A program made the translations under genes and the position numbers. From Catajapyx aquilonaris (taxonomy: Eukaryota), in NCBI GenBank assembly GCA_000934665.2, contig KZ538792.1, forward strand, positions 1-47,254: a stretch of 47,254 bases of DNA, in the 5' to 3' direction. The number at the start of each line of letters is the position of its first letter. Position 1 is the first letter of the stretch. Shown piece after piece: positions 3,001 through 37,700 of this stretch. Below the pieces are notes generated by a model. That model made no database searches. It was not told the DNA's origin and saw only the letters and a program-made list of their open reading frames with translations.

Positions 3001-3068
<68 letters not shown>
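3001..3068. repeat. (GA)n microsatellite preceded by a G-rich tract
   Basis: About 34 GA units with a single interruption, read directly. Confidence 0.97.
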
Positions 3069-3069
<1 letters not shown>

Positions 3070-3121
3070 GTGTTCATCCCAATTTTGTTTTGACTGGAAC
3101 TCTTTGCTTTCATTTTTACTT

Positions 3122-7100: not shown

Positions 7101-9651
7101 ATTGTGCAAAATCAGGGGTAATTGTACAATATGTGCTCATTATGGCAACTAGCCTCAATACATCAGGAATCACTGTTCACCATAACCATTGTCAATTACA
7201 CCCCCACTAAGTAACAAATCTGCTAGTCACTGGCATTTCAAAATTTTGACTTTGTATCAAAGATATTTCCTCTAATAATATTCTATTGTTACAAATTATC
7301 AATTTAATGGCTCTCTCCCTCAAAAATGTGATCTAGGTGAATGCATAAATTCTGCACCAAAGCATCCTTTACTTCAGCTCCTGCAGTGATGTGCTACACC
7401 ACTGACAGAAGCAAACTAAAATCAGGGTTAGAATCTCACATCAAAATCTTCATTCTCATGTTCCAAGAGTTCAAGCGCTTCCTAAACTTTGCCATTAATA
7501 AAAATCAGTCATTATTAAGCTCACAGTGATTGTTTCCTAAAAACTTCTGACACTGTATTTTTTTCTAAACGGTATGAAATCATGGTGAGGTGCAAATGTC
7601 AACATGCAGCAATATCCATCCTGGACTCATGCCTACCAGCCATTAATTCATGGCATGAATCACAAAGTAATATTTTCCACATTAATGGTACTCAAGCTGA
7701 AATGTCATTGTCTGGGCCAAAATTATTGCACTGAAGTGGACAAAATTTGAAGGATGCATAAAACCTGCTCTTAACATATGCTTAAGTTCAGCACCTCTTC
7801 ATCCGATTCACCAATCAAGACTCGAATCACTCAATTGAGAGGCCCATGCTTGTGTAGCAATATCTCCACTACAGCTGCTTAAAAAAGAAAGGTGAATATC
7901 TCAGTTCACTGATGGTAAGTTACCCTGATGCTGCACAATGATGCCCAAGCAGTACGACGGCACTACAGAAGCATGTAACAATGCCGATTATAATTGTAGC
8001 AATTATATCAAAATGGTCAACATTAGAATCTATACCTACATAAAGGCACCTCAAATATGCATGACAAAACAAACTTATGTTGTGGATACTTTTTACACAC
8101 AAAAGAACATCAATAATGAAGCCTTTCATTAGACGTGACACTAGTGAAACTTCCTGCATCATGCTCCCATTTTATGTAACACTTTTTCATCCCCTCTCCA
8201 TCCCACAACTGATGTCATGCAGCAGCAGAAAAATCATGTACGTACTGGCATTCCAGATGGAAAGATGCTGGGCATCTGTCACAGCAAAGAAGATCACCTC
8301 CTTCCCCACAAGCATCACAACAATCATGGTTGTGACCTTTTCCTGGTCGCTTGTAGTAGGGATGGAGATCCCTGTTCTCCTTTTTCTTGCGCGAAGATTC
8401 GTCACTTCCAGGAGGTGCGATTAGTGCTTGGATTTGCTGAAACGGGCCAGATTTCTTAGGAATCCCATTACGATACCTGTAAACAGCTTACAAACAATGG
8501 CCTTACAGTATAAATTACACTACACATCCCAGGTACTGATAAAGCACAATGGCTGCCCTGTAACTCGGCCAAATATTTGATTCTAGGGCTCAATAGTTTC
8601 AGGTTAGACTTGGCTAGCAAACTCTTATTACACAAAATAAACTCTCATCTACAATAAGTCCTTCAACTCAACTTATTCAAGTGATATCAGACTGGCACCC
8701 ACTGCAGCAGTACCCACTCACATAAGTAACTGTACTTCAGGATGGGAGAAAAATATCAGGAATATAAGTTTCACTTGCGTAGGCACATTCATCCAGTCAC
8801 GTAGCAGGCTACACTCACTTCCAAACAAGTTCAACACTGTACGTTCTCAACACGTGGGCTAATCCCATCCCACATGCACACGAATTTTTGCACTACATCC
8901 TATCTCAACTGAGTCAATCAAGTGACTGTTTGATTTGTTCAGTAAAGGTAGAACAGCACAAAAGGCACATTGGAGTATTACGTAAAGGATATGCTCAGTG
9001 ACTGCTATTACCTTACCCTGCCTAAATGGTCATACTGACTCACTGTGGTCACACCTAGAAACACTTTGACCTTCTTTCACTCTGAGCAAAGAGACAAACG
9101 CATACATGAATACAAAGTGCGTTGTGCTGAGCCACACTGCTACGTTGACCCCCACAGTCCCTCGTGCATGTACGATGACTGAGTGTACTTTCTAGCCCTA
9201 TGCCATCACAAATTACACTGGCTGTGGGTCTAGCTTTGCCCCAATCTGCTTGATAGCGGCTTCCCTTCATTCCAAGAGGAGTCAGCAGTCTCAGCACTAG
9301 TGGCTAAGCCATCTCCCCAAAGTGCTGTTCCCTAGTTCCAGTGCATCCCATGCTCCATCCCTTTCCCCACAGCTTCCTTCTTTACCCTTCCAGAGTCCCT
9401 GAGCCATCCCGAACGCAGATTCACCCGAACAGGCGCCATTTTGACCGCCTTCGCCTCTCTGCTCCACACACACAGCCTGCTGCCCCAGTGCTGCTCCTCT
9501 CTCTCTCTCTCTCCCTCTCGCTCGCTCCCTCTCTCCCGCCTGCCTGCCTGGCTCTCTCTCCCCTCCCGTCCGCCTTGGTGTCCCCCCTTGATCCCCCTTC
9601 CCAAATACTCACGGGCATGAGCCCCCCCGTGATGTCCAGGTCGTACTCCAT
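4182..9651 (-). CDS. PHF12: PHD finger protein 12 (Pf1, Sin3/HDAC complex subunit), 5' part; the gene continues beyond the left edge
   Basis: Exons (minus): 9651-9613, 8436-8246, 6083-6014, 4851-4182, all GT-AG and phase-consistent. Translation MEYDLDITGGLMP-QIQALIAPP...[49 protein letters not shown] gives the PHF12 N-terminus plus PHD1. An acidic linker follows, then ...ASLLNPTQFELP, a conserved PHF12 motif. PHD2 exons were not found in 1-4181. Confidence 0.93.
6235..7088 (+). mobile_element. Internally deleted, degenerate mariner transposon in PHF12 intron 2
   Basis: 27-bp TIRs C(A/G)AGGGCTGTTCAAAAAGAAACTGAAC with TA on both sides (6233-34, 7089-90). Frameshifted transposase remnants: KRVCVKF, TLVVFLDWK, RPQLWESQTWILHHGNAPAHTSLLI (HHDNA motif degenerate), a YSPDL-like segment and a YFEGD-like end. 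At 854 bp it is shorter than the roughly 1.3 kb of a full mariner. Confidence 0.9.
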
Positions 9652-11465
9652 CCTCGCCGTGGCTGCCCCTGGGCTCCCCTCAAGTGGGGAGCACAAACCA
9701 CCGCACTTACACCTCGCTCACGCCAGGCACAGGCAGAGCAACACACAAAAAAAAATAAACACCCGCTGGTAGAAAGTCTGTCCGATTCCCTCCCGTCCCT
9801 CCCTCCTCTCCTCTGGTCCTCCCCCTCTGGCTGGTCTGGTCTGGTCTGGGACCCGGGGCCGGCCTGGGGTCCGCAGGCGTGGGTCCGGAGCTGTGTCCTA
9901 ACCAAGGGTTTTTCACGTATCCGCTGAGCGAGCCCACAACCGATTTGGAGGGAAGCAGAGGTGTACGCATGCGCACACCAGAGGGGCTCCGAGCGCACGC
10001 AGGGTGGCCAGACGCGGAGGAGGTCGGAGGGCGACGGTGGCGCCACACGCACAATGGCCCACTCCTGCCCCCTGCTCTCCCTCGCTCTTTTAACCGAAAA
10101 TGCCACCTCCACAGGGCGTGTTAATTGACATGACAGGTTTCAATGGCCATGGAGTGATTAAATATTTGGATGGGAGTGCGGAGGAGGGAAGAGTTTGTGG
10201 GTCAGTCACCTTGGAGGGGGGAGGGAGGGCGCCAACGATGACGTCATGATGTAGGTCGCATTCCACCTGGCGGGACTAGTGCACTCGCAGATACCGTATC
10301 ACACCACGAGTATACGGCACTGTACTTGTTTCCACTCTATTAGAGAGGCTCTCTACACTCTACGGGTCGGGTATAGGGGCACTATGAGGAAAAAACCTGA
10401 TATTCACATGGTTATCCGAACCCTAGGTTTTGCCAGCTGAAAGAAAAGTCTAGTCGCAGATGGGCATTGTGAAAACCATGACCGTGCCCTATACCATTTT
10501 ACCAAACAGTAGCTTATCCCAGTCTGCAGCTGAAACTCTGTTTGTAGGGTTTTCTGAGAGACTTTGAAGTAACATTGTAACTAATAAATGACACAAGGTT
10601 AAATTGCAGATTAGGGTAACCTACTGCTAGAGAAAATGGGCCTGAGGAAGACAAGGGTTTTTTTTGGCACATAGTTGGGCAAGATGCATTTACTAATGAC
10701 TGCAAGTATACAAGATTCTCAACAAGCTCCTACATTCACCGAATGCATTAATTGTCACTTCTAGGCACTCGCAGTAAATATACAGTCACATGAACACCAA
10801 TAAATAATATATTTCTCATTAAATATACCAGTAACTTTGGAAGACTACACACTTGAATCACAGCTATTGTCATGACTATTACACACATACCCTGCATTTG
10901 TAAACGTAATAACGTATGCTATGAAGCTTATTGCTGTTGCCATCTTATAAGTACTACGTAACAATAATGGAACAAGTTTTCAATTAGAAAATCTAGTGAA
11001 AAACAATGGCAGTTCTTGTGCAAGGCATTACTGAGCTTCTTGGCAAATCTCCTTGTACTGTGGTCAACAAAATATCTTTTTGAAAAATTTCCTCCTGGAG
11101 AGGCAATCAATAACGAATGCATAGGTACAACAACAGTTTGCATATTGGCTAAACCAGATCTACTCACTGCCTCTAGTTGGAAAGTGTTTTTGAGGAGGGA
11201 AGTGTGGAGGTTAAACAAGTACTCTCGATGTCACAGGATAGGTGGTATAATTATTATCATCATGATTGTATATCACTGTTACCAGCTGTTACCAAGAGCT
11301 AATAACAGTTATTAGCTCTTGCTGTTACTGATTAGGGCTTTTTATGAATGAAGTTCAACAGTGACACCACATCCCAACTCACATCCCCAAATGCACTAGC
11401 CAACATAGCGTGAGGCAACAGTATAATAACTCTTCCTGCTCAAAATCCTGATACCAATCTGGCTG

Positions 11466-13359
11466 CTAAAACCAACGTCTGTAGGTGTTGTCCATCATGT
11501 AGTCAACCAGGTGATCAATAGGCTTGACAATGAAAGGGATGCAACCAAGACCAATTCCAACAGTGGTCCATTTGCAGGTGGCCAGAGGAAGCTTTGTAGT
11601 CCTGGCCAAGACCCACAGGCTGGCGGCACAGACACGATTTATAGTGAATCCAGGAATGGCCACTGATGCCAGGGTCTGCCATACAAGCGTGTCCACAGCT
11701 GTCACTACAAGCTGCTTCTGCCGACCCTTCACATCCATTGAAAGTTTCTGTAATATGCAACAAGTTACATAACATAAATATGAGTCAAGAATCCAATGCT
11801 TTGTGATGTAGAGTTCTTGCACCCTCAGTTATGATCTTGGGAAACAGTTGGGGGAGAAAAATTGAATTGGGCATTCAGGTTGGAAACCAAATCAAAATAG
11901 AATTGATTCATTTGATTGAATCGTGTTACTTTCTTTCTTTGGCTGTTAAAAACAAAGACAAATTAATAAGCATCTTGCTGTAAATTTTTGAAAATATATG
12001 TTAATGAACAGGGCTCAACAGAGACAGCCAAATGAAAGTACACACCCTTTGCAATTTCTCCCCCCAAAAAATCGAAACAATGGAAGTCATTCTAAACAAT
12101 GCTGGTCCCTGGAGGCTGTTTGAAGACCTCCCAGCAACACAATCTCGAGATTCTTTGACTGCCTAGGTCACAAGTGTGTGGGCATTGTCACAAAGACTAG
12201 CAACTTGGTTTCCTTCTCCTGATTTTTGAGCGGGGAGGGTTTGAGACCCCTTGCCATCCAGTCCCATTGCATCCAATGACTTCCACCTCTTTTGTTCTGT
12301 AACAGAGCTCTGGATGGAAAGAAGTTCTCATCGGAAGATAAAGTTAAGGTGTGAAGTGATGTCTTCCATGGGTGAGGCTTTAAAAACCTTGCTTTACAGA
12401 GGAAAAAGTGTATGAAAGTGCCAATATAATTCCTTTAAAATGAGGGAAGGATGCCCACTCTGACTGTGTAGCTGCCAAATGACATCAGTATTGTGCCATA
12501 GCATTCACCTTCTGAGGTTCTATATTTGAGGGGTGTGGTGGAAAAAGGTGAAAACCCTAATTTTTGTCATTTTTGACCTGAACACCTAGCAACAATGTAC
12601 AAGACATGACAAACAGTTTGGTACACTCCCAAGTTCCCATATAATCTCCGAGTTCTCCCAATTATTCCCAGTCGAAAAATATCTCTTCTCCTTATTATCA
12701 TATACAATCTGCTTTTCTTTCCTGATTCTTCATTGTTTAGCCATGAATACTGTGATGTAATGGCAATAAGGCTCTTTGGAGATGAATTACTGCTCCCTAT
12801 GAACTAAGAACAACAACACTGCTATTATTATTATCCTTGTACAATCAGTCCATCAAGAATTGTCGTAGCGGCAGCGCACGAACTACAGTTACGAGCACTT
12901 CTCCCCCCAGAAGTGCTCGTAGGCTGTAGTTTGTGCGCTGCCGCTACGACAATTCTTGGCGGGCTGATAGTACCTTGCTTAGTAATGACAAACATGTAAA
13001 ATTGAGAGTGTACACTATACAGTATATCCTTTCACTTGACTGCCTCAGTTGGTTTTCATTAAAGTAAATCTGCAAAGGAAAAGTGTAATTATCGATGTTA
13101 TGGTGTCATGATACCTTATCCATCTTGCTGGTTTTGTCGGCAGTGTCAGCAATCACATACGCAGATGCAACTCCATAACTCAGTCGCACCCAGTTGACAT
13201 GAACGACGGACCGGAATGATTCTCCCACTTCATTTGCATAGCCTGTAATGCAACAATTTTCAACCACAAAGTTCTCCATCTCCACACACTGTGTTACTCA
13301 CCTAGCAGGCGGACAGGTGTGTCCCTGTAGATATCAACTGGTTCCCCTGTGCTTCCCAT
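11466..13359 (-). CDS. MTFP1: Mitochondrial fission process protein 1 (MTP18), 155 aa
   Basis: Exons (minus): 13359-13302, 13242-13115, 11747-11466, GT-AG and phase-consistent. MGSTGEPVDIYRDTPVRLLGYANEVGESFR...YGVASAYVIADTADK...DTLVWQTLASVAIPGFTINRVC...IPFIVKPID are hallmark MTP18 motifs. Confidence 0.96.
12839..12973. repeat. Near-perfect fold-back (about 65-bp arms, tiny loop) in MTFP1 intron 2
   Basis: CAAGAATTGTCGTAGCGGCAGCGCACGAACTACAG..TACGAGCACTTCT-CCCCCC-AGAAGTGCTCGTA..CTGTAGTTTGTGCGCTGCCGCTACGACAATTCTTG. Confidence 0.9.
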
Positions 13360-13789
13360 TTTGCTTAGTCGCTACTTGTGCAGTCTTGTGCGCTGCAAGT
13401 TAAACACGTGCCTATTACTTATCAAGAGCCATATTATTAAATAACGAGCAGCAGACACAGTCAAGTGGCAAACATGCAGTGGAACTCTGCCAGCGAGGCC
13501 AAAGGTCATGCACAAGCTGGCCTCATTAGATAAGGAACAAACCCTCTGAGACTACAATCCAGCCCTTCACTGCACCCAGGAAGCCTCAAATAATCCCCAC
13601 AAGGTAACCAGATTGATTTATCGCATTCTAATCCAAGTGCACCATTCAAAATAATTCACATTGTCAAAAGGTCAAGGCCAAGCACGGATGTAACCGTAAG
13701 TGAGGGGGCAAATAAGGTAGGCCTATCTGAAAAGCATTTCTGAGCCATGCTGATTGATAATTTTAACCCGTAATATGCAATAAACTCAC

Positions 13790-14107
13790 GTAATGTGCAC
13801 GTAACGGCACGTAATCAAGGCCGACGACGTTTCGAGCGTGTCTTTTGTTCAGTCCGGTTCGAGTGCACGTCTCTTTAATTTTTATCACTACACAATGTTT
13901 AGGAAGAACGCATTTAAATCACGGCTTAAAATCGACTATATGTGTATTCAGCGTAAATTTACACTTAACATTTTTGATAAAATAAGTGGGTGCACTCGTA
14001 TCCGCACAAAACATGGCGCCAGTTGCATAAGTGATTGACTTGCAAGTCTGGTCTCGCTCAATTTGCTCACAATTGGCACATTTTCCTGGGTCGTTTCACC
14101 ACTCGAA
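13790..14107. promoter_or_regulatory. Putative bidirectional promoter between MTFP1 (-) and MAD2L2/SDS (+)
   Basis: The ATGs are head-to-head, about 750 nt apart. A probable MTFP1 5'UTR intron has donor GTGAGT at 13789 (minus) and acceptor TTAACTTGCAG at about 13393. The stretch is CpG-rich. AAAACATGGCG at 14008-14018 is a YY1-like motif and also opens a uORF, MAPVA*, at 14013-14030. Confidence 0.55.
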
Positions 14108-14680
14108 ATGGCGGAATCTGGCAGCGATCACTCCGAAGCGGTGTCCCGCATTGTTCAAGTGATGCTGAACCAGATACTGTACGAGAGACATGTCTACCCG
14201 AAATCAGCGTTCAGTCAGGCCCAGGAGGTGTACCAGGTGCCGGTACATTTGGCGACCCATCCGGATGTTAAAGTGTACCTGGATGAGTGTGCGGGTAAAA
14301 TCAAGGCCTCTTTGCGTGCAAGGACTCTGCGTCAGGTTGTCCTCCAGCTGCAGAGCGCATCCAGTCATCTTGCTCTAGAAAACTTTGTTTTTGATTTCCG
14401 GTATGATCAGAAAGTGTCAGGCAGGCTGAATAAAGACTGCAGACAGATGCTCACAAGTGTGCTGAACTGTGACTCGGCACTGGATCCAATACCATCTGGA
14501 TGTCTGTTTAGTGTCATGCTCCACGTCGCAGATGATGGGGCGACGTCCAGTTGCTGGGTTGATGTAACAGAAGAGCACAGCGCAGAGCCAAATGCTTTTC
14601 ACATGGTTCCACTGAATGTGCTAAATGCACCAGGGGTTCAAATCCGTTTGTACATTGAAGAGCGCAAACAAAAGAGCTAA
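14108..14680 (+). CDS. MAD2L2: HORMA-domain protein MAD2L2/REV7 (Pol zeta accessory subunit), intronless, 190 aa
   Basis: ATG at 14108 (GAAATGG). VMLNQILYERHVYPKSAF...YQVPVHLATHPDVKVYLDE...ENFVFDF...LDPIPSGCLFSVMLH...IRLYIEER follows the REV7 pattern (ILYxRxVYP..F; YxVPV...HP; EKFVFE; QLYVEER). Confidence 0.88.
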   Translation: MAESGSDHSEAVSRIVQVMLNQILYERHVYPKSAFSQAQEVYQVPVHLATHPDVKVYLDECAGKIKASLRARTLRQVVLQLQSASSHLALENFVFDFRYDQKVSGRLNKDCRQMLTSVLNCDSALDPIPSGCLFSVMLHVADDGATSSCWVDVTEEHSAEPNAFHMVPLNVLNAPGVQIRLYIEERKQKS

Positions 14681-14818
14681 CATTGGGGTAGTTCGTCGTC
14701 CTACCACGAGGAGAATCAGGGAAATGTGTTATTTTAATGTAAATTGAACTTTCAAAGCTTCCAGTTATTTTGGAGTAATTTCATAGATAAGGAATTTATA
14801 TTTGTATTTTTATGTAGT

Positions 14819-16723
14819 ATGGAGCCTCTACATGTGGCCACACCTCTTCTGCACAGTACCACGTTGAGTGGGGTTGTTGGTGCACCTGTATATCTCAAGA
14901 TGGAAACTGTGCAACCATCTGGGTCCTTCAAGATTCGTGGTGTTGGTTGCCACATTCAGAGGGTGAGTACAAAGAGGTACATTTATACTCTCGGTGAATG
15001 GAGATTATCTTTGTCTTGATGAACAGCTGGTCCAGAAGGGTGCAAAACATTTGGTTGGTTCCTCTGGAGGAAATGCGGGATTGGCAATGGCATATGCAGC
15101 GTCTCAACTTGGAGTGGAAATGACTATCTGTGTCCCAGGCACAACCATGCCATTTATGATTCAGCGCCTAAAGGATTTGGGTGCCAATGTTAAGGTAAAA
15201 TATTTATATCTATGATGAACATTGTTAAGGTCTGAGGGTATATTGAAATTGCGCAGCCGAGGGAATAGTGGTTAGAGCTACAGCCTTCCATTTTTTGACA
15301 TGAGTGCATTGTTGGCAGATTGGAGGCGTTGGCTGGGATGGAGCCAATGAGATGGCTCTAAAGGTGGTGGCAGACAACCCTGGGGCCATATTTGGGCATC
15401 CATTCGACCACCCAAATGTTTGGGATGGGCACACATCTATTGTGAAGGAGATAAGTGAGCAGCTTAGACAGAAACCATCATGCATTGTTGTGTCTGTTGG
15501 AGGAGGAGGATTGATCTGTGGAATCTTAGAAGGATTGGGTTTGGTTGGTAAGTCACAGGGGTCTAGAATGGTAGTGTAGGTATGAAGTTTTGGCCATGTT
15601 TTGGCAAAATAAGCGAAAGCTATCAGAACTTTTCTCTGCTACCTTGATTTTTAGCGTGTAAATTGGGAAAATGTGGATCAGTCAAGTCTGTGGGAAAAAA
15701 TAACAACTATTATTCCGGTGCGTGATGCACATTTTGTGTACCCTGCTTCCTGTTTTCATATACCAATCTGGTATTCCATTTCAGAGTAAAACTGCTTTCA
15801 CAGACTGTCTAGTAATTTTCTAAATTCCCTCGTAGGTTGGGAGAATGTTCCAGTGCTAGCCATGGAAACAGAGGGTGCCAACTGCTTCAACTTGTCTATA
15901 AAAGCTGGATGCCTGATTACAATGGATAAGATCACTAGGTGAGAGCAAGGTTTCACTTTGTTGGTACTTTACTTAGGTAAAAAGTACCGTAATAATGAAA
16001 TATGTGACACAGGATGGTGTAATTAGGGACCAGTTGTGTCATCTCAAATTCTGGAGAAAATCTAATTAGCCTACTTGGGAATACTGTACATGATGAGATT
16101 TTCTTTTGATTCTACTGATACAATGCATTTTTGTTGTACATAATGAACACTGTCCTGTTCCATATGAATATCTTCTGTAAATGAAGGAACTCCACTGCAG
16201 TGACTGCAGACAGATTAAGTTGACATTGGTCAGAAATACTTGGGAAATAGTTTGTGCGTTTTGAGGTAGACGTAGTCCATGCATTGATTTCATTAATGAT
16301 GTGTTCTTTTCTGAGCATCCTCAAACATAAACAAATTCTAGTTGGATCTAGTAATGAGCTGGTAAGAAAGTACAGTACCATTATCGACCATTATTATAAA
16401 TCAGTGTGTTCTCCAACAGTTTGGCAGTAACCCTTGGAGCACGTGCAGTGACACCCCGCCTCATGGAGCTCTTGTCGTCACGGACAGTGATGTCAGAAGT
16501 GGTATCTGATAGGCAGGCTGTTGATGCCTGTCGTAAATTTTTGGATGATCACCGCCAGCTGGTGGAGCCATCATGTGGGGCATCACTTGCTGCTATCTAC
16601 TCAGGAGGGATCAGACGACTAATTTCGGATGGGACAATTGAGAATGGCCCCATTGTTATGATTGTCTGCGGTGGAAGTGGAGTCACAGTAGACATGCTCA
16701 ATGCCTGGCTATCTCGTGATTAA
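14819..16723 (+). CDS. SDS: L-serine dehydratase / L-threonine deaminase (SDS/SDSL family, PLP fold type II), 315 aa
   Basis: Exons 14819-14962, 15027-15194, 15319-15547, 15836-15938, 16420-16723, GT-AG and phase-consistent (948 nt). Motifs: [16 protein letters not shown] (PLP lysine), [33 protein letters not shown] and IVCGG. SDS and SDSL cannot be distinguished here. Confidence 0.93.
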
Positions 16724-17562
16724 TGGCAGGGAAAGTGGTTGCATGACACAAGACAAAGGTGGGATTTACATTGGCATGTAAATAGGGCATACTGGTGCTA
16801 TTTTTATGGCACATTAGCATTTATTGAAGTGTGCAAATAATCTATGTCCAACAAGATCCAACTTGAAGCCAACTTTTCAGCGCTTGGGCTTGTTACTACT
16901 ACACACTACAGGATATGGAATTTTTTCATGTGGAAGTTGATGTAGTGTTCCGTATGTGATTGTTCATGAAGGTCGAAGGGCAGTCTGCTTCACTGTAGTC
17001 TCTATCTGATTACCCATACTCATTGTTATATAAATTAGCTGCACAACTGCATTTTTTTTCTTGGTAATATGCATTCAACTGTGTTGACCCCCCAAGTGAA
17101 AAATAATTACTTTTTAACCCTGACAGGAAAATATATAATAATTGTCCAAAAGAACTCGTTATGATACATGATTTTTTGTTTGAGACATCATTTCAGGCTT
17201 AGTGACAATTATGAGTATCTTGTCCCCACATAATACTACTAGTACTAATAACAATAATAATAATAATAGTGGTTTATTTACCCCCTCCCTGTGAGGTATA
17301 CAGGGTGTTTCAGAGTCATGGGTCTAGCGCGCGCAAGGGGGTGGGGAAAAATCGTAGGTGGCGACAACCCCGGTCGGTTTTATAAAACAATTGGAAATAC
17401 GGCAGTAATCAATATATTTATTACGGCCGTACGGCATGACGTCACATCCTTTCTGTTCGAATTGACTGGCACGGACTGGCAGGTGCACTAGTGGGTTGAA
17501 CCTGGTTGAATGGCTTTTCAGCCTTGCGGGTTGCACTGAAAAAGGCGCTCTCATGCTATGCC

Positions 17563-17621
17563 AGCAGGGTACTGTACAAAGTAGTGTCCTACTGTACAGT
17601 AGTGTGTACAGTACCCTGCTA
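17563..17621. repeat. Small palindromic element
   Basis: AGCAGGGTACTGTACA ... TGTACAGTACCCTGCT, a 16-bp perfect inverted pair. Confidence 0.7.
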
Positions 17622-17924
17622 GTCTAGTTCCTGCTAACGTAGCAGTGGGATGAAAATTTCACCCCTAATTTTTTATAATATTTCTAAGTTTCCTCATGAG
17701 CGGGATTTTTTTTTGTAACACATTTAATTGGTGTGTCTCACTATCTCCTTGATATGTAAAAATTATTAACATACGCGTATTTGTACATTACTCTCTCGCA
17801 AATGATTTTAAGCAGAAAAAAGCCACCCCTGTACAAGTGAGACAGGCACAGCTGAATGGCTTCTCCGCCAGGCGCTGAGGTATGCAAAGACTTGCATGGA
17901 CAAAGGGATCACGGCTTTATCCAC

Positions 17925-18093
17925 TGGTACAGTGTTGGACATTAATCGAGATATGTTGGTAGTGACATTTTTCGAAGCGGCAGAAGAAGGAATCTTGCTC
18001 GCCCAGCTTGCACTATCCTTATCTTCGATGCCTTCTTCTGCTGCTTCGGATGTCACTAGCAGCATGCCTCGATTAATGTCCAACCCTGTACCA
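17925..18093. mobile_element. Fold-back MITE between the convergent SDS and ZNHIT2 3' ends
   Basis: TGGTACAGTGTTGGACATTAATCGAG...AGTGACAT...CGAAGCGGCAGAAGAAGG pairs with CCTTCTTCTGCTGCTTCG...ATGTCACT...CTCGATTAATGTCCAACCCTGTACCA. Termini are TA-flanked CAG.GTTGG. This explains the mirror-image ORFs 17808-18083 and 17896-18096. Confidence 0.8.
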
Positions 18094-18496
18094 TGACAGA
18101 GACAGCTTAATTATTTTAAGTACATTATTGCATGAAACTAGCCACACAGAATGATCACTGCAGGTCAGCTAGAAAAAACATCCATCCCTGTGTTGCCCTC
18201 AATTATGGTGAAACATAATTTGAAGTGCCACACTTTGTATCTGCTAACATGCAAGGTTTTTCAAGATCGGCATTTTCAACAACAACATCACGACATTTCC
18301 CTCTGAGGGGTAGTCAGCGATGAAGGGAGACGCAACCTAACCCAACATATGAACTAATAAAACTCATGAGAATAAACCTAAAAACAACCCGTCCCACCCC
18401 CCACTCTGCCCACCTCAGAAACAGACACTCAATATTAAATTTAAATATTACACTATGCAATATTGTACTTCGTCAAAAACAAGCCGCCGCCCCCCC

Positions 18497-18519
18497 NNNN
18501 NNNNNNNNNNNNNNNNNNN
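18497..18519. other. Assembly gap (N run) inside a poly-C tract
   Basis: 23 N bases flanked by C runs. Single Ns also sit in C or G homopolymers at about 29396, 37709 and 38830. Confidence 0.98.
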
Positions 18520-18893
18520 CCCCCCCCCGTCACCAGCCACTACTCCGGACGCCCTGGCCACGCCGACGCATTTTCAATAAAAATAAATTAGCAAGACAAG
18601 AGGTTTAATAAACACAAAGCAAGTCCATCCATGTTTATGATGCAAATTCAAGTCATTCATTCTGATTTCAAATTAATACTCTGACACCTCCTTAAACAAC
18701 AGGTCAAGGTAAATCTTCCAGCTGGCTGGTACACTAGTGGAAAAACTGCCTTGTATCCCGGCAACCAGCACCAATACAGGCGTGGATGGAAGCGGAAGCA
18801 CGTGCTTCCACTTGCATCTGCGTGATTGGCCACTCGGCACTGCTTGTGGGGGGTACGCTGTAGTTTTTTTTCCCCAGTGGGTACTGCCCATTT

Positions 18894-21367
18894 TTAATAG
18901 GTCTGCGTCGTCCAAAGTTTTTCATAGTTTTCTTTCGCCCAACTCAGCATATATTCCAACTTCTTCAGAGTCCTAAAGTGATGCTTGTTCTTCTCCTTAA
19001 CAGCAGCTTGGAAAATATCACATGCTTCTGATAGTGCAGCCAACACATACTGATCACTGCTCCTGGCTTTATATGGACCTGCAATTATCTGGCTGACATC
19101 TGTTTGGATTGATTTTGCAGTTTCTGGAGTAATCCCATCTTCAGCACAATCCACCAGCATATGCTGTATCCCAGACTCAATTGCATCTCCAAATGACTTG
19201 AAGTTGGTTTGTTGTGACAATGTAGCAGACACCTTGGACATGTGTGTGGCCACAGCAGATGGAGATGATTGCCAGTCTCCATTGTACACTTTCATAGCAC
19301 AGGCATAGGCATAGAGAACATTAACCATGCTATATTTCACAGCATCTGAAGGTGCAGTTTTCTGAAAATAAAAGTCACTTTAGCAGGCAGCACCACTACT
19401 GCATGATAGGTAATGAACAAAGTCTCCCTACGTTAGCTTGAATCACTACTTTATACACTATACTCCCGATTATCTGTGCTAATGAATGCATGGGTGTCCC
19501 CAGATAATCCGAAAACACGGATAATCCGAAAATGGTCCTAGATACCGTACAAATGAGATATTCACAGCTTTTTAATGTACTGCTGTACATAGTGTATGCT
19601 GCTTTATATAAGGTTTAATCAAAATTATGAAACTTACCAGAAATTTTTAGATTGTCTTCTGGAAAAGTCTTATATGTCTTCGTTTGTGAGACACAATGAC
19701 ATTTTTGAGGACTTTCATTTTTCATTTTATTTTTTGGTGATGCACGGCTAATCTGCACTAGGATAATTGGGAGTACAGTGTACATTTAAATTCTGAAGAA
19801 CAGGAAGAAATTTTTTTGAAAATGTGATCATTCTTCAAGCATTTCATGAAAGTACAGCACCGTAAGTTAGGTACTACACAGGTTTAAAATGAGTGTAGCC
19901 TTCTACTTCAGTAGAACATGTTTGAGGTTCACTTTTTTCATGGCAATAAATTAAAAATTCTTTTCGTATAACAGAAAGCGTATAACAGTGTATAATAGAA
20001 AAATGCCTTAGTAAAATCTACAGATTTTGGCTTGTAAAAGAAAAATGCATACCGTTACTGCAGACAGTTCTTGTATGTTCTCCCTGATTTTTGGACGTTG
20101 GTTCAACATTCCAACCACTTCAACTCTCCCAATTCTGCAAGTATAGACATGTTAACTAACATAAAGCATGGGCCTGACAACCCTTTAAGAACTTGTCTTT
20201 CTGTCATGGTAAGGATGATGAAAATCATTATTACAAACAATGATTGCTCTCAACTTACTGCTTTCTCCACCAAGGTGACCAAACTGGTACAAGGCAACCA
20301 GCCTCACCATTTTCAACCAGTTTCTTGAATTCTGCCTGTTCTTCCTGACTCAGCTTGTCCCAAACAATGTCTGTGTCATCCAAATCCACCCCTGCCAACC
20401 TCTCCTCTAATGGCACATCATCATCTGAATCTGCATATAATCCATGACAGAAAGTTGCTTTAAAAAACCTGCATCTTGGATATTGCATACCATAAAACAG
20501 GGTGAATAGGGACCAATCTCCTGACACAAATATGATACGGTTGTTTAATATAAATGTCTCCACCATGCGGGGAATTTGGAGCTGGTATCTACCGCTGCAA
20601 CCATCCAAATCCTAGTCTGCAAACGCCCTCCGAGGAAAGAACGGTTTGGGTTGGTTCTGAAGGCAGCCAACCCGAAGCGACCCCCTAGTAAATGCCTATG
20701 GAGGCGCACCAGGGCCAAATCCTCGCATAGCGGAGACTTTTATATTAAACTACCATCAACACAGGGTTAGGGTGGATGTGTCCGGGGGCTGATAGGGACA
20801 TTGAGAAAATCTGCATGCTACACCAGCAAACAATGCAATTCTGCCGTAAAGTTCCGAGTCCAACCACATGCAAACTTGTGGAAGTGACAGTTTAGGCAGA
20901 GTGGCATCTTTATTAAGAAACAATGACCCCGCAACATTTACAAATTGGCGTCACGGCATACCTAACTCTTCCGAATCGGGCTGCGCCCCCTCTTCATTTT
21001 CCATCTCTTTCTCCCACTCCTCCTTCTCCAGTTTTTCCATCTCCTTGATCTTCCCCAGCAGGTCCTGGCTGAGCCCTTCCGTCCCTTCCTGCTCCACCTC
21101 ATCCAAGACGCAGTCCCGATAGAACTGGTCCGAGCACTCCATGTGCTCAGGGGCTCCATAGCACTTGAGGGAGCAGTAGGACAGCTCACACTTTGGGCAC
21201 GTGTACCGCGCCTTCCCCTTGTCACATCTGGAAATTCACATCGCAATAAAATGTGTTCAACCTCAAAGCAATTGCGATACTTGCATTTCACATAGTGAGT
21301 CTCCCTCCCTGGGGTCTGGAAGGAATGCCTCTGCGTTGCCCTCGCTGCACCCGCTGTATCCCGCCAT
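18894..21367 (-). CDS. ZNHIT2: Zinc finger HIT domain-containing protein 2 (R2TP/U5 snRNP assembly cofactor), 356 aa
   Basis: Exons (minus): 21367-21285, 21227-20962, 20430-20259, 20134-20053, 19361-18894 (1071 nt); first intron is GC-AG. zf-HIT finger: CEICDKGKARYTCPKCELSYCSLKCY...HMECSDQFYRDCV. Further motifs: DSDDD.PLEERLAGVDLDD..VWDKLS.EE..EF, VPVWSPWW, NVLYAYA and KKLEYMLSW. Confidence 0.92.
19456..19780. mobile_element. pogo/Tigger-like MITE in ZNHIT2 intron 4
   Basis: TA-CACTATACTCCCGATTATC ... GGATAATTGGGAGTACAGTG-TA, with internal GATAATCCG repeats. Same family as 37586-37916, in the opposite orientation. Confidence 0.8.
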
Positions 21368-34739: not shown

Positions 34740-37700
34740 TCAATAGATATCTGGACATCTGCTCCAGTCTTGCTTCTCCTTGCAGGCCCAATACTGTCCC
34801 TGGTACACATGTATCACATTACCGGTGAGCAGATCCTTCTCTTTTCTGAACCATATTGGCTCATACTGAGAGTAAGGGCGACCTGGAATTAAGTGTTGTT
34901 TAGCTACTCTCCTACTCATGGTTCAAATTGCAAAATGGGATGTAGCCATTTCATGTGAATCTCACCTTCTCCAGTAGCAATCTCAGCATCAGTCTCTCGC
35001 CTTTTTCTAGTCATCCTTTGCTTATCTTCAAGCCTGAGCTTCTCAGAATTTGCCTCATCCCATCGGCCCTCTTCCATAAGGCGCTGGTCTGGACGATGCC
35101 TTGAGTCTGTGGGAGCCACACCATCTTCACGCTCATTCAGCTGGCACGCCAACAGTGTGAAGTTGTAGTACTTGTCTGAGTCAGCCCTGAAAAGATACAT
35201 TGTTACCATGAGAAATACCTTTACTTTGTGAAGTAGCAGTACTTTACGCCGAAAAACAGGTACCTTAGAAATGGTTTGTCAAGATTCCTAAGCTCTACAA
35301 TTTTACTCCCATCTCCAACCCTGAAAACATTCCCAGAATCTGACGTTACTGGACTTCTTCCAGAAGGATGTAAGATTCTACCATGGTGCCCAAATTCTTA
35401 CTGTTGCAGTCTTTCTGAGACTACAGGGTGAACCAGGAAAAGCATAAACTCACGTGGTAGGGTTCCTCTTCCACAGCAGACGGTAAGATCCAGTCTCAAG
35501 CACTGAGTTTCCCTTCTCAGCTTCCCCCGAGGTACTCAGAACTTCAGCTGCCTCCATGCTATTATCCCATGTTCCTTTGAGAACCCACTTAACATTCCCT
35601 TGCTTGTCCACCACACATCCTGTCACCTGCAAAAATGGTTACAATTAGATTATAATGTACTCTAGTAATATTTCATGTCTAGGAGTCTTAATGGTACCTT
35701 TCTCTGCACATCTCGGTTAAAGTAGCTGTAAGGGATAAATTTGAGATGGCACTGTTCCTCTGTCTGATGGTTCATGATATCCATCTCTCCACTTTGATCC
35801 ACCCACAGCTTGCCAACTATAATGTTGTGAACAGTTGTGCTCACTTTGCGCCATGTGTAGTGGTTGCCTGAAATATGGTGAAAAATTACGTATATTCAAT
35901 AATTTGGATAATGACAGTTGCACTTTAACTATTACTATCATTATCTTAAGCAGCATATTTTTATATAGCAAAACCTGTCTTTCACAGTCACACAGCAAAA
36001 ATGTTCTGTACTCAACAGATTTCAACTACATGCAATAAAAAATGCACTGAAAATTCTTCTCAGCCCCCACACAAAAATTCTGTAATGGACAAGTTTCTGC
36101 TGAACCTAGGGACTGTTAGAAACAGGTTTTACTGCATATGAAACTGGCTAATTGGTTAATGCAAAAAAAAAGCCCCCTATGAACTACAAAAACAACTGAT
36201 ATCCTGAAAATGTACTTAGGATATTTTCCTACTCATTAATTTACTTGCTGCACTTTTACAAAATTAAGGCCCTCACCAATATTAAACAAAATTACAATTT
36301 TGGTTATCAATTCTGAAGGCATTGTGGAAAGGTGCCTTTTATGTACTAAAGCCCACAAATGAAAATAAAACTACTCTTCCTCCTTATCCTTCAGTTATTA
36401 TCAACTACACTTTTACTTGCAAACACATCCATGTGATTATTATTAATTATTATTATTGCTTTTGTCCATTCATCTCACCTGACTTGTCAAATGTGAGATG
36501 CGCAATCCCAAGTGGTACGACCTGCAAATATTTGCCACGGAACTTTGAGGACATAGAGAATTCCTGCCAGCACTTCCATCCCCTCCCTTCGCAAATCTGT
36601 GCAGCTACAGGTGGGTGATGGGAGACCTGTTCTGACACAGATCTCCACCCCATGTCATCCATGCGGTCACACTCAAAGGTTTCTCCCAAGAGGGGGTTAA
36701 AGGGCTTCCCTGTGCGAACAGAAGTGGTGGCATAGGAAGAGACAGTGAATGCAGCTACATAGGCCAGCTGTTCACAGGAGTCGTCACAGCGTGCAGCATC
36801 ATCCAAGATGTCGCTGTATTCATAATCCTCTGTCAAGCGCTGAAGCATTGAAAGAGGCTCTGAAAAGTTCACCTGAAATGCAAGAGATGATGTTTCAATT
36901 CTTACAATTCATCTGCAAGCTGACCTGTGAGTAAATCTTTTGCCACATACACTGAGTCATTACAGAAAGTGCAGCTGCACTATTTATGGTTTTCAGTTAT
37001 TGACAAAACTTGAGAATGCTAATGATCAATTACTTTTTAAAGCACCTATTCTCTTACAGAACTGTAAATATGTGGCTGAATCGAAGTGTTAAGGGGTCAA
37101 ACATGGCTCGAGGTCTACTTATGATCACCTTATGTGCTTATTGTTCGTTAATCTGCCATAAATATAAGCAAATAACATAATTATGAGTGGCGCTTAGTCA
37201 AGGAAATAATACAAATCAACTGTAGGATACTAACTGGCATTGGTATCTTTGTGAGGTCCTTCCCAATGCAGTTCTTCATGATGCTCCATAGGTTAAGAGG
37301 ATAATTGGGCTTCTCTGGAACACGTAAGCGACGCTTCTTCTTCACAAGGTCCAAGGCAGAGTGGTACTCACTGGACGGCTTTGAAGTGGCCGAGTTTGCC
37401 TAAAGTATATGGAAATAAAGGTTTGAAATTTCCATCAAAACAGAAAATGGATCCTTGCAAGAACAATGTTCCTAAAACTACAGATTGTAACATCACCCTC
37501 CATGAGTATTTTGGACACTTTCCACATGTGGATATCAAAAGTTATTTTCACTTTCACTTAAATTCTGTTGTTACATCTGGTAATACACTGTACTCCCAAT
37601 TATCTGGGTGCTGATTATCCGTGCATCGCCAAAACAAAAATAAATAAATAAAAGTCCGAAAAAATGTCATTGTCTTGCAAACAAAAAAAAAACGGGGGGG

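Follow-up and report, generated by a model that had tools for sequence, protein, structure and literature searches.

A divergent REV7-family gene closely followed by a serine dehydratase gene in Catajapyx aquilonaris

The window analysed is a stretch of 47,254 nucleotides (nt) of Catajapyx aquilonaris (GenBank assembly GCA_000934665.2, contig KZ538792.1, positions 1 to 47,254 of the forward strand). It contains an intronless open reading frame (ORF) for a divergent HORMA protein of the REV7/MAD2L2 family and, on the same strand and after a spacer of only 138 nt, a gene for an enzyme of the serine dehydratase (SDS) type. The reading favoured here, with a probability of about 0.55, is that the two are separate transcription units, abutting or slightly overlapping and tightly packed head to tail. 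A first-pass annotation of this DNA had proposed one shared transcription unit, in which MAD2L2 is either removed as an intron of the SDS 5' untranslated region (5' UTR), translated from a dicistronic mRNA with SDS, or separated from SDS by spliced-leader (SL) trans-splicing. RNA contigs cover the entire spacer, so the closeness on which this proposal was premised stands, but two of its three mechanisms are contradicted by the sole RNA evidence for the locus. The geometry that it gave is reproduced from the sequence: the HORMA ORF stops at 14680 and the SDS ATG lies at 14819 on the same strand. The two genes and the spacer comprise the following features.

14108 to 14680, plus strand: intronless REV7/MAD2L2-family HORMA ORF of 190 amino acids, with TAA at 14678-14680; identified by domain and structure searches; an RNA contig (record 2) covers 14558-14748.
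14681 to 14818, plus strand: spacer of 138 nt, covered throughout by RNA contigs (record 2 up to 14748, record 3 from 14733).
14801 to 14817, plus strand: splice acceptor look-alike, unused in the RNA contig; it holds a one-codon upstream ORF (uORF), ATG-TAG, at 14812-14817.
14819 to 14962, plus strand: SDS coding exon 1; contig joint 14961>15026; Pfam PALP at E 3.6e-10; 5' UTR collinear upstream to at least 14733.
15027 to 15194, plus strand: SDS exon 2, from the contig joints, with the frame checked.
15319 to 15547, plus strand: SDS exon 3; joint 15192>15317; PALP at E 5.2e-15; 3' boundary placed by GT and frame.
15836 to 15938, plus strand: SDS exon 4; joint 15936>16418; 5' boundary placed by AG and frame.
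16420 to 16723, plus strand: last coding exon of SDS, with the stop codon at 16721-16723; contig record 4; PALP at E 7.5e-9.
16724 to 17152, plus strand: SDS 3' UTR up to the contig end; it contains neither AATAAA nor ATTAAA, and has AATATA at 17130 and AATAAT at 17137.

The sole RNA run with the locus, X1, is a public run of 31.8 million letters that holds 0.39 of the sampled words, its kind and tissue being unrecorded. It is taken as RNA of the same species because its contigs skip the introns of SDS and of the upstream gene MTFP1 exactly at GT..AG and with 0 mismatches. Record 3 (587 letters, 0 mismatches) follows the genome unbroken from 14733 to 14961, then from 15026 to 15192 and from 15317 to 15507, with GT..AG joints at 14961>15026 and 15192>15317. 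Since SDS introns 1 and 2 are removed from it, record 3 represents mature plus-strand SDS RNA. It spans 14818/14819 collinear with the genome (86 letters before this point, 143 after it), and it begins with its own letter 1 on 14733, free of any non-genomic leader. The list of joints has 8 entries; 14818 is the end of none of them, and none starts at 14030, 14041 or 13695. The AG at 14816-14817 is thus an acceptor look-alike that is unused in the RNA of the SDS contig, and the SDS mRNA carries the unspliced genomic spacer as its 5' UTR, with RNA support for at least 86 nt.

This collinearity contradicts the removal of MAD2L2 as a 5' UTR intron of SDS, and together with the missing leader it also contradicts trans-splicing at 14818. 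Contigs drop rare forms and can lose short leaders, and 6 of 27 loose ends were listed; forms of either kind are left as minor possibilities, as rare isoforms. An operon resolved by trans-splicing would account for a short spacer that lacks a canonical poly(A) signal and for an unpaired acceptor-like site 1 nt before an ATG. The leaderless SDS contig that runs collinear across 14818 argues against it, as do the ordinary cis-spliced 5' exons of the MTFP1 contig and an Rfam scan of the window (0 matches, SL RNA included), and such an operon is very improbable. A tRNA scan gave 0 genes.

Record 2 (191 letters) extends from 14558 to 14748 and spans the HORMA stop codon with 123 letters before and 68 after it. 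Record 2 shares its last 16 nt (14733-14748) with the start of record 3, but the two are not joined; the sole words missing between them are those across 14719-14762. RNA thus reaches at least 68 nt beyond the HORMA stop, and the RNAs of the two genes abut or overlap within 14733-14748. The SDS mRNA is itself split between contigs, from 15507 to about 15859, and because of this internal break the contig ends are not taken as transcript ends. Stretches without X1 cover include 13403-13669, 13937-14470 (most of the HORMA ORF), 15539-15805 and 16073-16339. Contig depths are 3 for record 2, 4.84 for record 3, 14.2 for record 4 and 15.5 for MTFP1, values that are unfit for ranking genes or their parts. 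The last position of the SDS contig, 17152, is preceded by AATATA (17130) and AATAAT (17137), and that of the MTFP1 contig, 11008, by an AGTAAT about 20 nt away (11008-11035, minus strand); AGTAAT also occurs in the spacer, at 14773-14778. Non-canonical poly(A) signals may be in use in this animal, as these two contig ends suggest.

Separate units are favoured on four grounds. If the RNA were bicistronic, the SDS ATG would come after 18 others (14108 to 14812), including three within the spacer, and under the scanning model upstream ATGs are unfavourable for initiation at a downstream ORF. In both the HORMA and the SDS ORF the start codon is flanked by A at position -3 and G at +4, a strong start context that fits each of them as the first long ORF of its own mRNA. 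The spacer RNA has no special fold; it is no stabler than its shuffles (z +0.72), 150 of 200 of which are at least as stable. Finally, non-canonical 3' ends appear to be usual at the locus. With separate units, SDS transcription would start in the late part of the HORMA gene or in the early spacer, from a promoter without a CpG island, and the HORMA RNA would terminate within the spacer, using a non-canonical poly(A) signal of the kind apparently used at the SDS 3' end. Part of the transcription may read through. If the two genes are coupled at all, this would come about through promoter occlusion or transcriptional interference and not through shared processing.

The upstream part of the SDS mRNA as represented in record 3 contains two one-codon uORFs, ATG-TAA at 14737-14742 and ATG-TAG at 14812-14817, the latter separated from the SDS ATG by 1 nt. 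A further uORF, of 7 codons, begins at 14724 in the spacer. These spacer uORFs could damp or tune the translation of SDS.

Several observations weigh against separate units, and they concern the RNA, the spacer and the acceptor-like string in turn. The contigs, which come from one small run, cannot show transcription starts or poly(A) ends, and record 2 is unspliced, so that its strand is undefined. A 16-nt overlap like that of records 2 and 3 would also result from one unbroken RNA if word cover dipped locally. CpG observed/expected is 0.28-0.31 at 14700-15099, around the SDS start, where there is hence no CpG-rich promoter. The spacer, as the first-pass annotation had reported, is AT-rich and contains neither AATAAA nor ATTAAA; its A+T content is 68%, and it also lacks all of the 20 hexamer variants listed. 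The main rival reading is a read-through or bicistronic RNA that starts at the divergent MTFP1/HORMA promoter, passes through the spacer and all of SDS, and carries the HORMA ORF ahead of that of SDS. Translation of SDS would then depend on re-initiation or some other non-standard mechanism, unless it took place only on a minor, shorter RNA. The cover of the entire spacer by overlapping contigs is consistent with such an RNA, the sole CpG-rich, promoter-like stretch sits upstream of the HORMA ORF, and, given that the SDS mRNA is also split internally, the discontinuity in the spacer does not have to mark the end of a transcript. Animal mRNAs that encode two conserved proteins are already known (PMC13303939). 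However, no contig among the X1 records listed unites both ORFs, and the test for a bicistronic RNA comes down to the 16-nt overlap of separate contigs. The 18 ATGs between the HORMA start and the SDS ATG also speak against it, and the fold of the spacer gives no hint of a structured entry site. The missing canonical hexamer is uninformative here, because it is missing from 79% of 20,000 shuffles of the spacer as well and because the plus strand from 14429 to 18356, the SDS 3' end included, has no AATAAA or ATTAAA. A bicistronic RNA is accordingly regarded as a serious but tentative alternative. Its most specific form is unlikely: one capped mRNA for the REV7-like protein and SDS from the promoter on the MTFP1 side, with SDS reached by re-initiation and perhaps tuned by the uORFs at 14737 and 14812.

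The acceptor-like string is the remaining point against separate units. TTTGTATTTTTATGTAG ends at 14817 and is followed by T and then by the SDS ATG, which agrees with the earlier description of an acceptor-like site 1 nt before that ATG. By a simple rule of our own, the plus strand of the window has 130 acceptor-like strings, 16 of them in 46 AT-rich bins of 138 nt, and such a string ends 0-3 nt upstream of an ATG in only 7 of 980 cases. Pyrimidines take up 10 of 14 positions in the look-alike, compared with 6, 8, 8 and 10 of 14 in the four SDS acceptors. The likeness of the string to a splice acceptor is real, and RNA decides on its use. A nested arrangement would give the string a function: in some tissue, an SDS 5' exon upstream of the HORMA ORF would be spliced to 14818, the HORMA gene being removed as a 5' UTR intron and the string being a real, perhaps ancestral, 5' UTR acceptor. 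The rarity of such strings beside an ATG and a pyrimidine content that matches the used SDS acceptors are in its favour, and the donor-like strings that had been proposed for it are present in the sequence (GTGATT at 14031, GCAAGT at 14042 and GTAAGT at 13696). The third donor, however, lies inside the first intron of MTFP1, left of the MTFP1 5' exon, and would need a plus-strand start to the left of 13696. In the one run with the locus, the spliced SDS contig passes 14818 without departing from the genomic sequence, and that position is not the end of any listed joint; were the spliced form dominant, the contig would be expected to break or branch at this position. A nested gene is improbable. 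With separate units, the string would be a look-alike that happens to stand beside a start codon.

The upstream ORF is, by domain and structure comparison, a member of the REV7/MAD2L2 family, although an unusually divergent one. It contains the Pfam domain HORMA (PF02301; E 4e-9; 36.7 bits, cut-off 24), and HORMA clusters are its neighbours in a protein atlas. In a sequence search of the PDB, the 15 best distinct sequences are all human or mouse REV7/MAD2B, aligned over residues 9-189 with E from 5.3e-17 to 4e-15, and MAD2 first appears behind REV7 at E 6e-7. A confident AlphaFold2 model from a 38-sequence alignment has the full HORMA fold, including the C-terminal strands, with a predicted local distance difference test score (pLDDT) of 89.3 and a predicted template-modelling score (pTM) of 0.87. 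Foldseek ranks 1-14 for this model are all REV7 (E 1.3e-16, template-modelling (TM) score 0.84). Rank 15 is MAD2 (E 1.8e-15, TM score 0.87), and the fold alone does not split REV7 from MAD2. The same alignment shows that the near-invariant REV7 columns are retained (Y30, P31, F35, Y57, E91, W150, P168) and that the ORF, at 190 amino acids, is shorter than REV7 and has loop deletions.

A HMMER scan of 1.84 billion representatives gave 302 matches at E<=0.001, 20 of them at E<=1e-10, with a top identity of 35%; no protein in this set matched the HORMA ORF at E<=1e-30. Ten best-match clusters were looked up, and five are named REV7, MAD2B or DNA polymerase zeta subunit 2. These REV7-type names belong to a tick, sharks and rays, a metagenome protein, a chytrid and an amphipod. 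One cluster of the ten is called 'HORMA domain-containing' (centipede), two carry source identifiers only, and two are unnamed. A word-indexed protein search with the ORF yielded 61 candidates, 0 of them at E<=0.001. BLASTP comparison with ten REV7 proteins, whose sources range from ticks to algae, gives the HORMA ORF identities of 24-32%; among themselves the ten are 25-48% identical save for one pair at 87%. The name 'MAD2L2' given in the first-pass annotation thus holds at the level of a REV7-family HORMA protein and is qualified by an identity of only 24-35% to any REV7. A neutral pseudogene that had diverged so far would not be expected to retain the full ORF and the fold. Because the ORF is both intronless and divergent, its origin as a retrogene, an intronless copy, is conjectured; no poly(A) remnant of a retrogene is seen by eye around it.

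The downstream gene is, by its Pfam matches, a serine/threonine-dehydratase-type enzyme dependent on pyridoxal phosphate (PLP), of the PALP family (fold type II). This assignment is made through Pfam only and from exon pieces, three of which match PF00291 (PALP) at profile positions 4-47, 120-178 and 242-295 of 295. The five-exon model comprises 948 nt in frame and encodes 315 amino acids. It contains SGSFKIRG and SVGGGGL, which we take to be the PLP-lysine motif and the glycine loop.

Upstream of the HORMA ORF, the minus strand carries MTFP1 (MTP18), and the interval between the two genes contains the putative promoter.

11008 to 11747, minus strand: last exon and 3' UTR of MTFP1; the contig ends at 11008; Pfam MTP18 at E 4.3e-10; model of 155 amino acids.
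13115 to 13242, minus strand: MTFP1 coding exon; joints 11747>13115 and 13241>13301 (CT..AC, which is GT..AG on the minus strand).
13302 to 13392, minus strand: MTFP1 exon with the start codon, from contig joints and the ORF model.
13790 to 13856, minus strand: MTFP1 5' non-coding exon of at least 66 letters; joint 13392>13790, side 66.
13857 to 14107, no strand: CpG-rich interval of at most about 250 nt, putative divergent promoter and HORMA 5' leader.
14013 to 14030, plus strand: 5-codon upstream ORF.

From the extent of the MTFP1 5' exon it follows that the transcription start of MTFP1 lies at about 13855 or farther right. MTFP1 and HORMA are thus arranged head to head, with at most about 250 nt between the 5' exon of MTFP1 and the HORMA ATG. 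CpG observed/expected is 1.41, 2.05 and 1.13 in the windows covering 13700-14099, the sole CpG-rich stretch nearby. The HORMA gene most likely uses a CpG-rich divergent promoter at about 13860-14100 in common with MTFP1, to judge by sequence composition and gene orientation. The start at 14013 assigned earlier to the MAD2L2-SDS feature corresponds to the ATG of the 5-codon upstream ORF and is not the start of the HORMA ORF, which begins at 14108.

MTFP1 has an intron of 59 nt (13243-13301, minus strand) with GT..AG ends and another of 1367 nt, and SDS intron 1 is 64 nt long. A search with a fragment of MTFP1 gave 97 matches, the best of them a tick protein at 70%, among proteins of at least 166 amino acids; the MTFP1 model itself has 155. 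MTFP1 (11008-13856, minus strand) lies about 20 kb from an oxysterol-binding-protein gene (34919-36908, minus strand). MTFP1 and OSBP2 are neighbours on human chromosome 22q12 as well, and the proximity of MTFP1 and the oxysterol-binding-protein gene may be an old conserved linkage.

The window as a whole contains about nine genes in 47 kb, including PHF12-like, protein kinase, GMP-PDE-delta-like and oxysterol-binding protein genes. Spliced genes with GT..AG introns are present, and the window is CpG-depleted (observed/expected 0.54). Because these other genes are kilobases apart, the far tighter gap of 138 nt between HORMA and SDS is exceptional within the window. A check on the HORMA-SDS spacing among related loci in metagenome contigs gave 206 pattern matches, 0 of them confirmed.

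Downstream of SDS, the minus strand has two long open frames of 161 and 118 amino acids at 18897-20611. Neither matches Pfam, and a word-indexed search with the ORF at 18897-19379 (minus strand) gave 19 candidates and no match, its length window having probably shut out relatives. The two frames probably belong to one gene convergent with SDS. At 17942-18475 the summed contig depth is far higher (69-145), with many contigs that are 90-95% alike and with odd joints; this is probably an expressed multi-copy repeat. An assembly gap (N run) lies at 18498-18520, with C runs on both sides. A GA-dinucleotide repeat at 3003-3080 reads as an (ER)n frame, and in a G+C-rich block at 9300-10140 (G+C 58% over 9001-10000) each strand holds long open frames. 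Low-complexity or CpG-rich DNA, not genes, is the likely explanation of the repeat and of the block.

Among known systems, the first to compare is REV7/MAD2L2 itself, which is subunit 2 of DNA polymerase zeta and a component of shieldin. The HORMA ORF resembles it in its HORMA domain, in having REV7 as the best match among solved structures (5e-17 compared with 6e-7 for MAD2), in the invariant columns and in the TM score of 0.84. It differs in being at most 35% identical to any REV7, in its shorter length and loop deletions, and in its lack of introns. The protein is more divergent than the REV7s of different kingdoms are from one another, and its role may be that of the ortholog or of an extra copy with a new partner.

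The arrangement upstream is like that of divergent CpG-rich promoters: the MTFP1 5' exon and the HORMA ORF stand head to head within about 250 nt, and the interval between them is CpG-rich. Here it is known from the sequence and the MTFP1 contig, and the promoter role of the interval is putative.

The SL operons of nematodes and tunicates have very short intercistronic spacers without AATAAA and an acceptor right before the downstream ATG. The HORMA-SDS spacer recalls them, being short, lacking AATAAA and having an acceptor-like site by the ATG. In contrast, the SDS contig is collinear and leaderless, and the animal shows no sign of spliced leaders. The case is also a caution that an acceptor-like string beside an ATG is not evidence of splicing.

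Bicistronic and conjoined animal genes share with this locus two full-length conserved ORFs on one strand, here 138 nt apart, with RNA across the spacer; the differences are that no contig extends over both ORFs here and that the spacer contains ATGs. PMC13303939 describes 14 human transcripts that encode two conserved proteins, and known cases such as SLC35A4/STREMI rest on evidence from transcripts and ribosomes; a term search of that paper's text finds no mention of MAD2L2, REV7 or serine dehydratase. A full-text search confined to one literature library returned nothing that links REV7/MAD2L2 to serine dehydratase, to such a retrogene or to read-through transcripts, and a search on serine dehydratase together with bicistronic returned nothing relevant by title or abstract. 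If a bicistronic REV7-like/SDS mRNA were true, it would add a full-size conserved pair to the short list of animal bicistronic genes and, through translation, amino-acid catabolism would be linked to a DNA-damage/HORMA adaptor. If the pair reflects simple packing, the locus is an ordinary one, a tandem pair with a 3' end and the next promoter within about 100 nt. The locus would then work like many compact tandem gene pairs, and at most like the known bicistronic genes of animals: a divergent gene of the REV7 family and a closely spaced tandem pair, both of known kinds.

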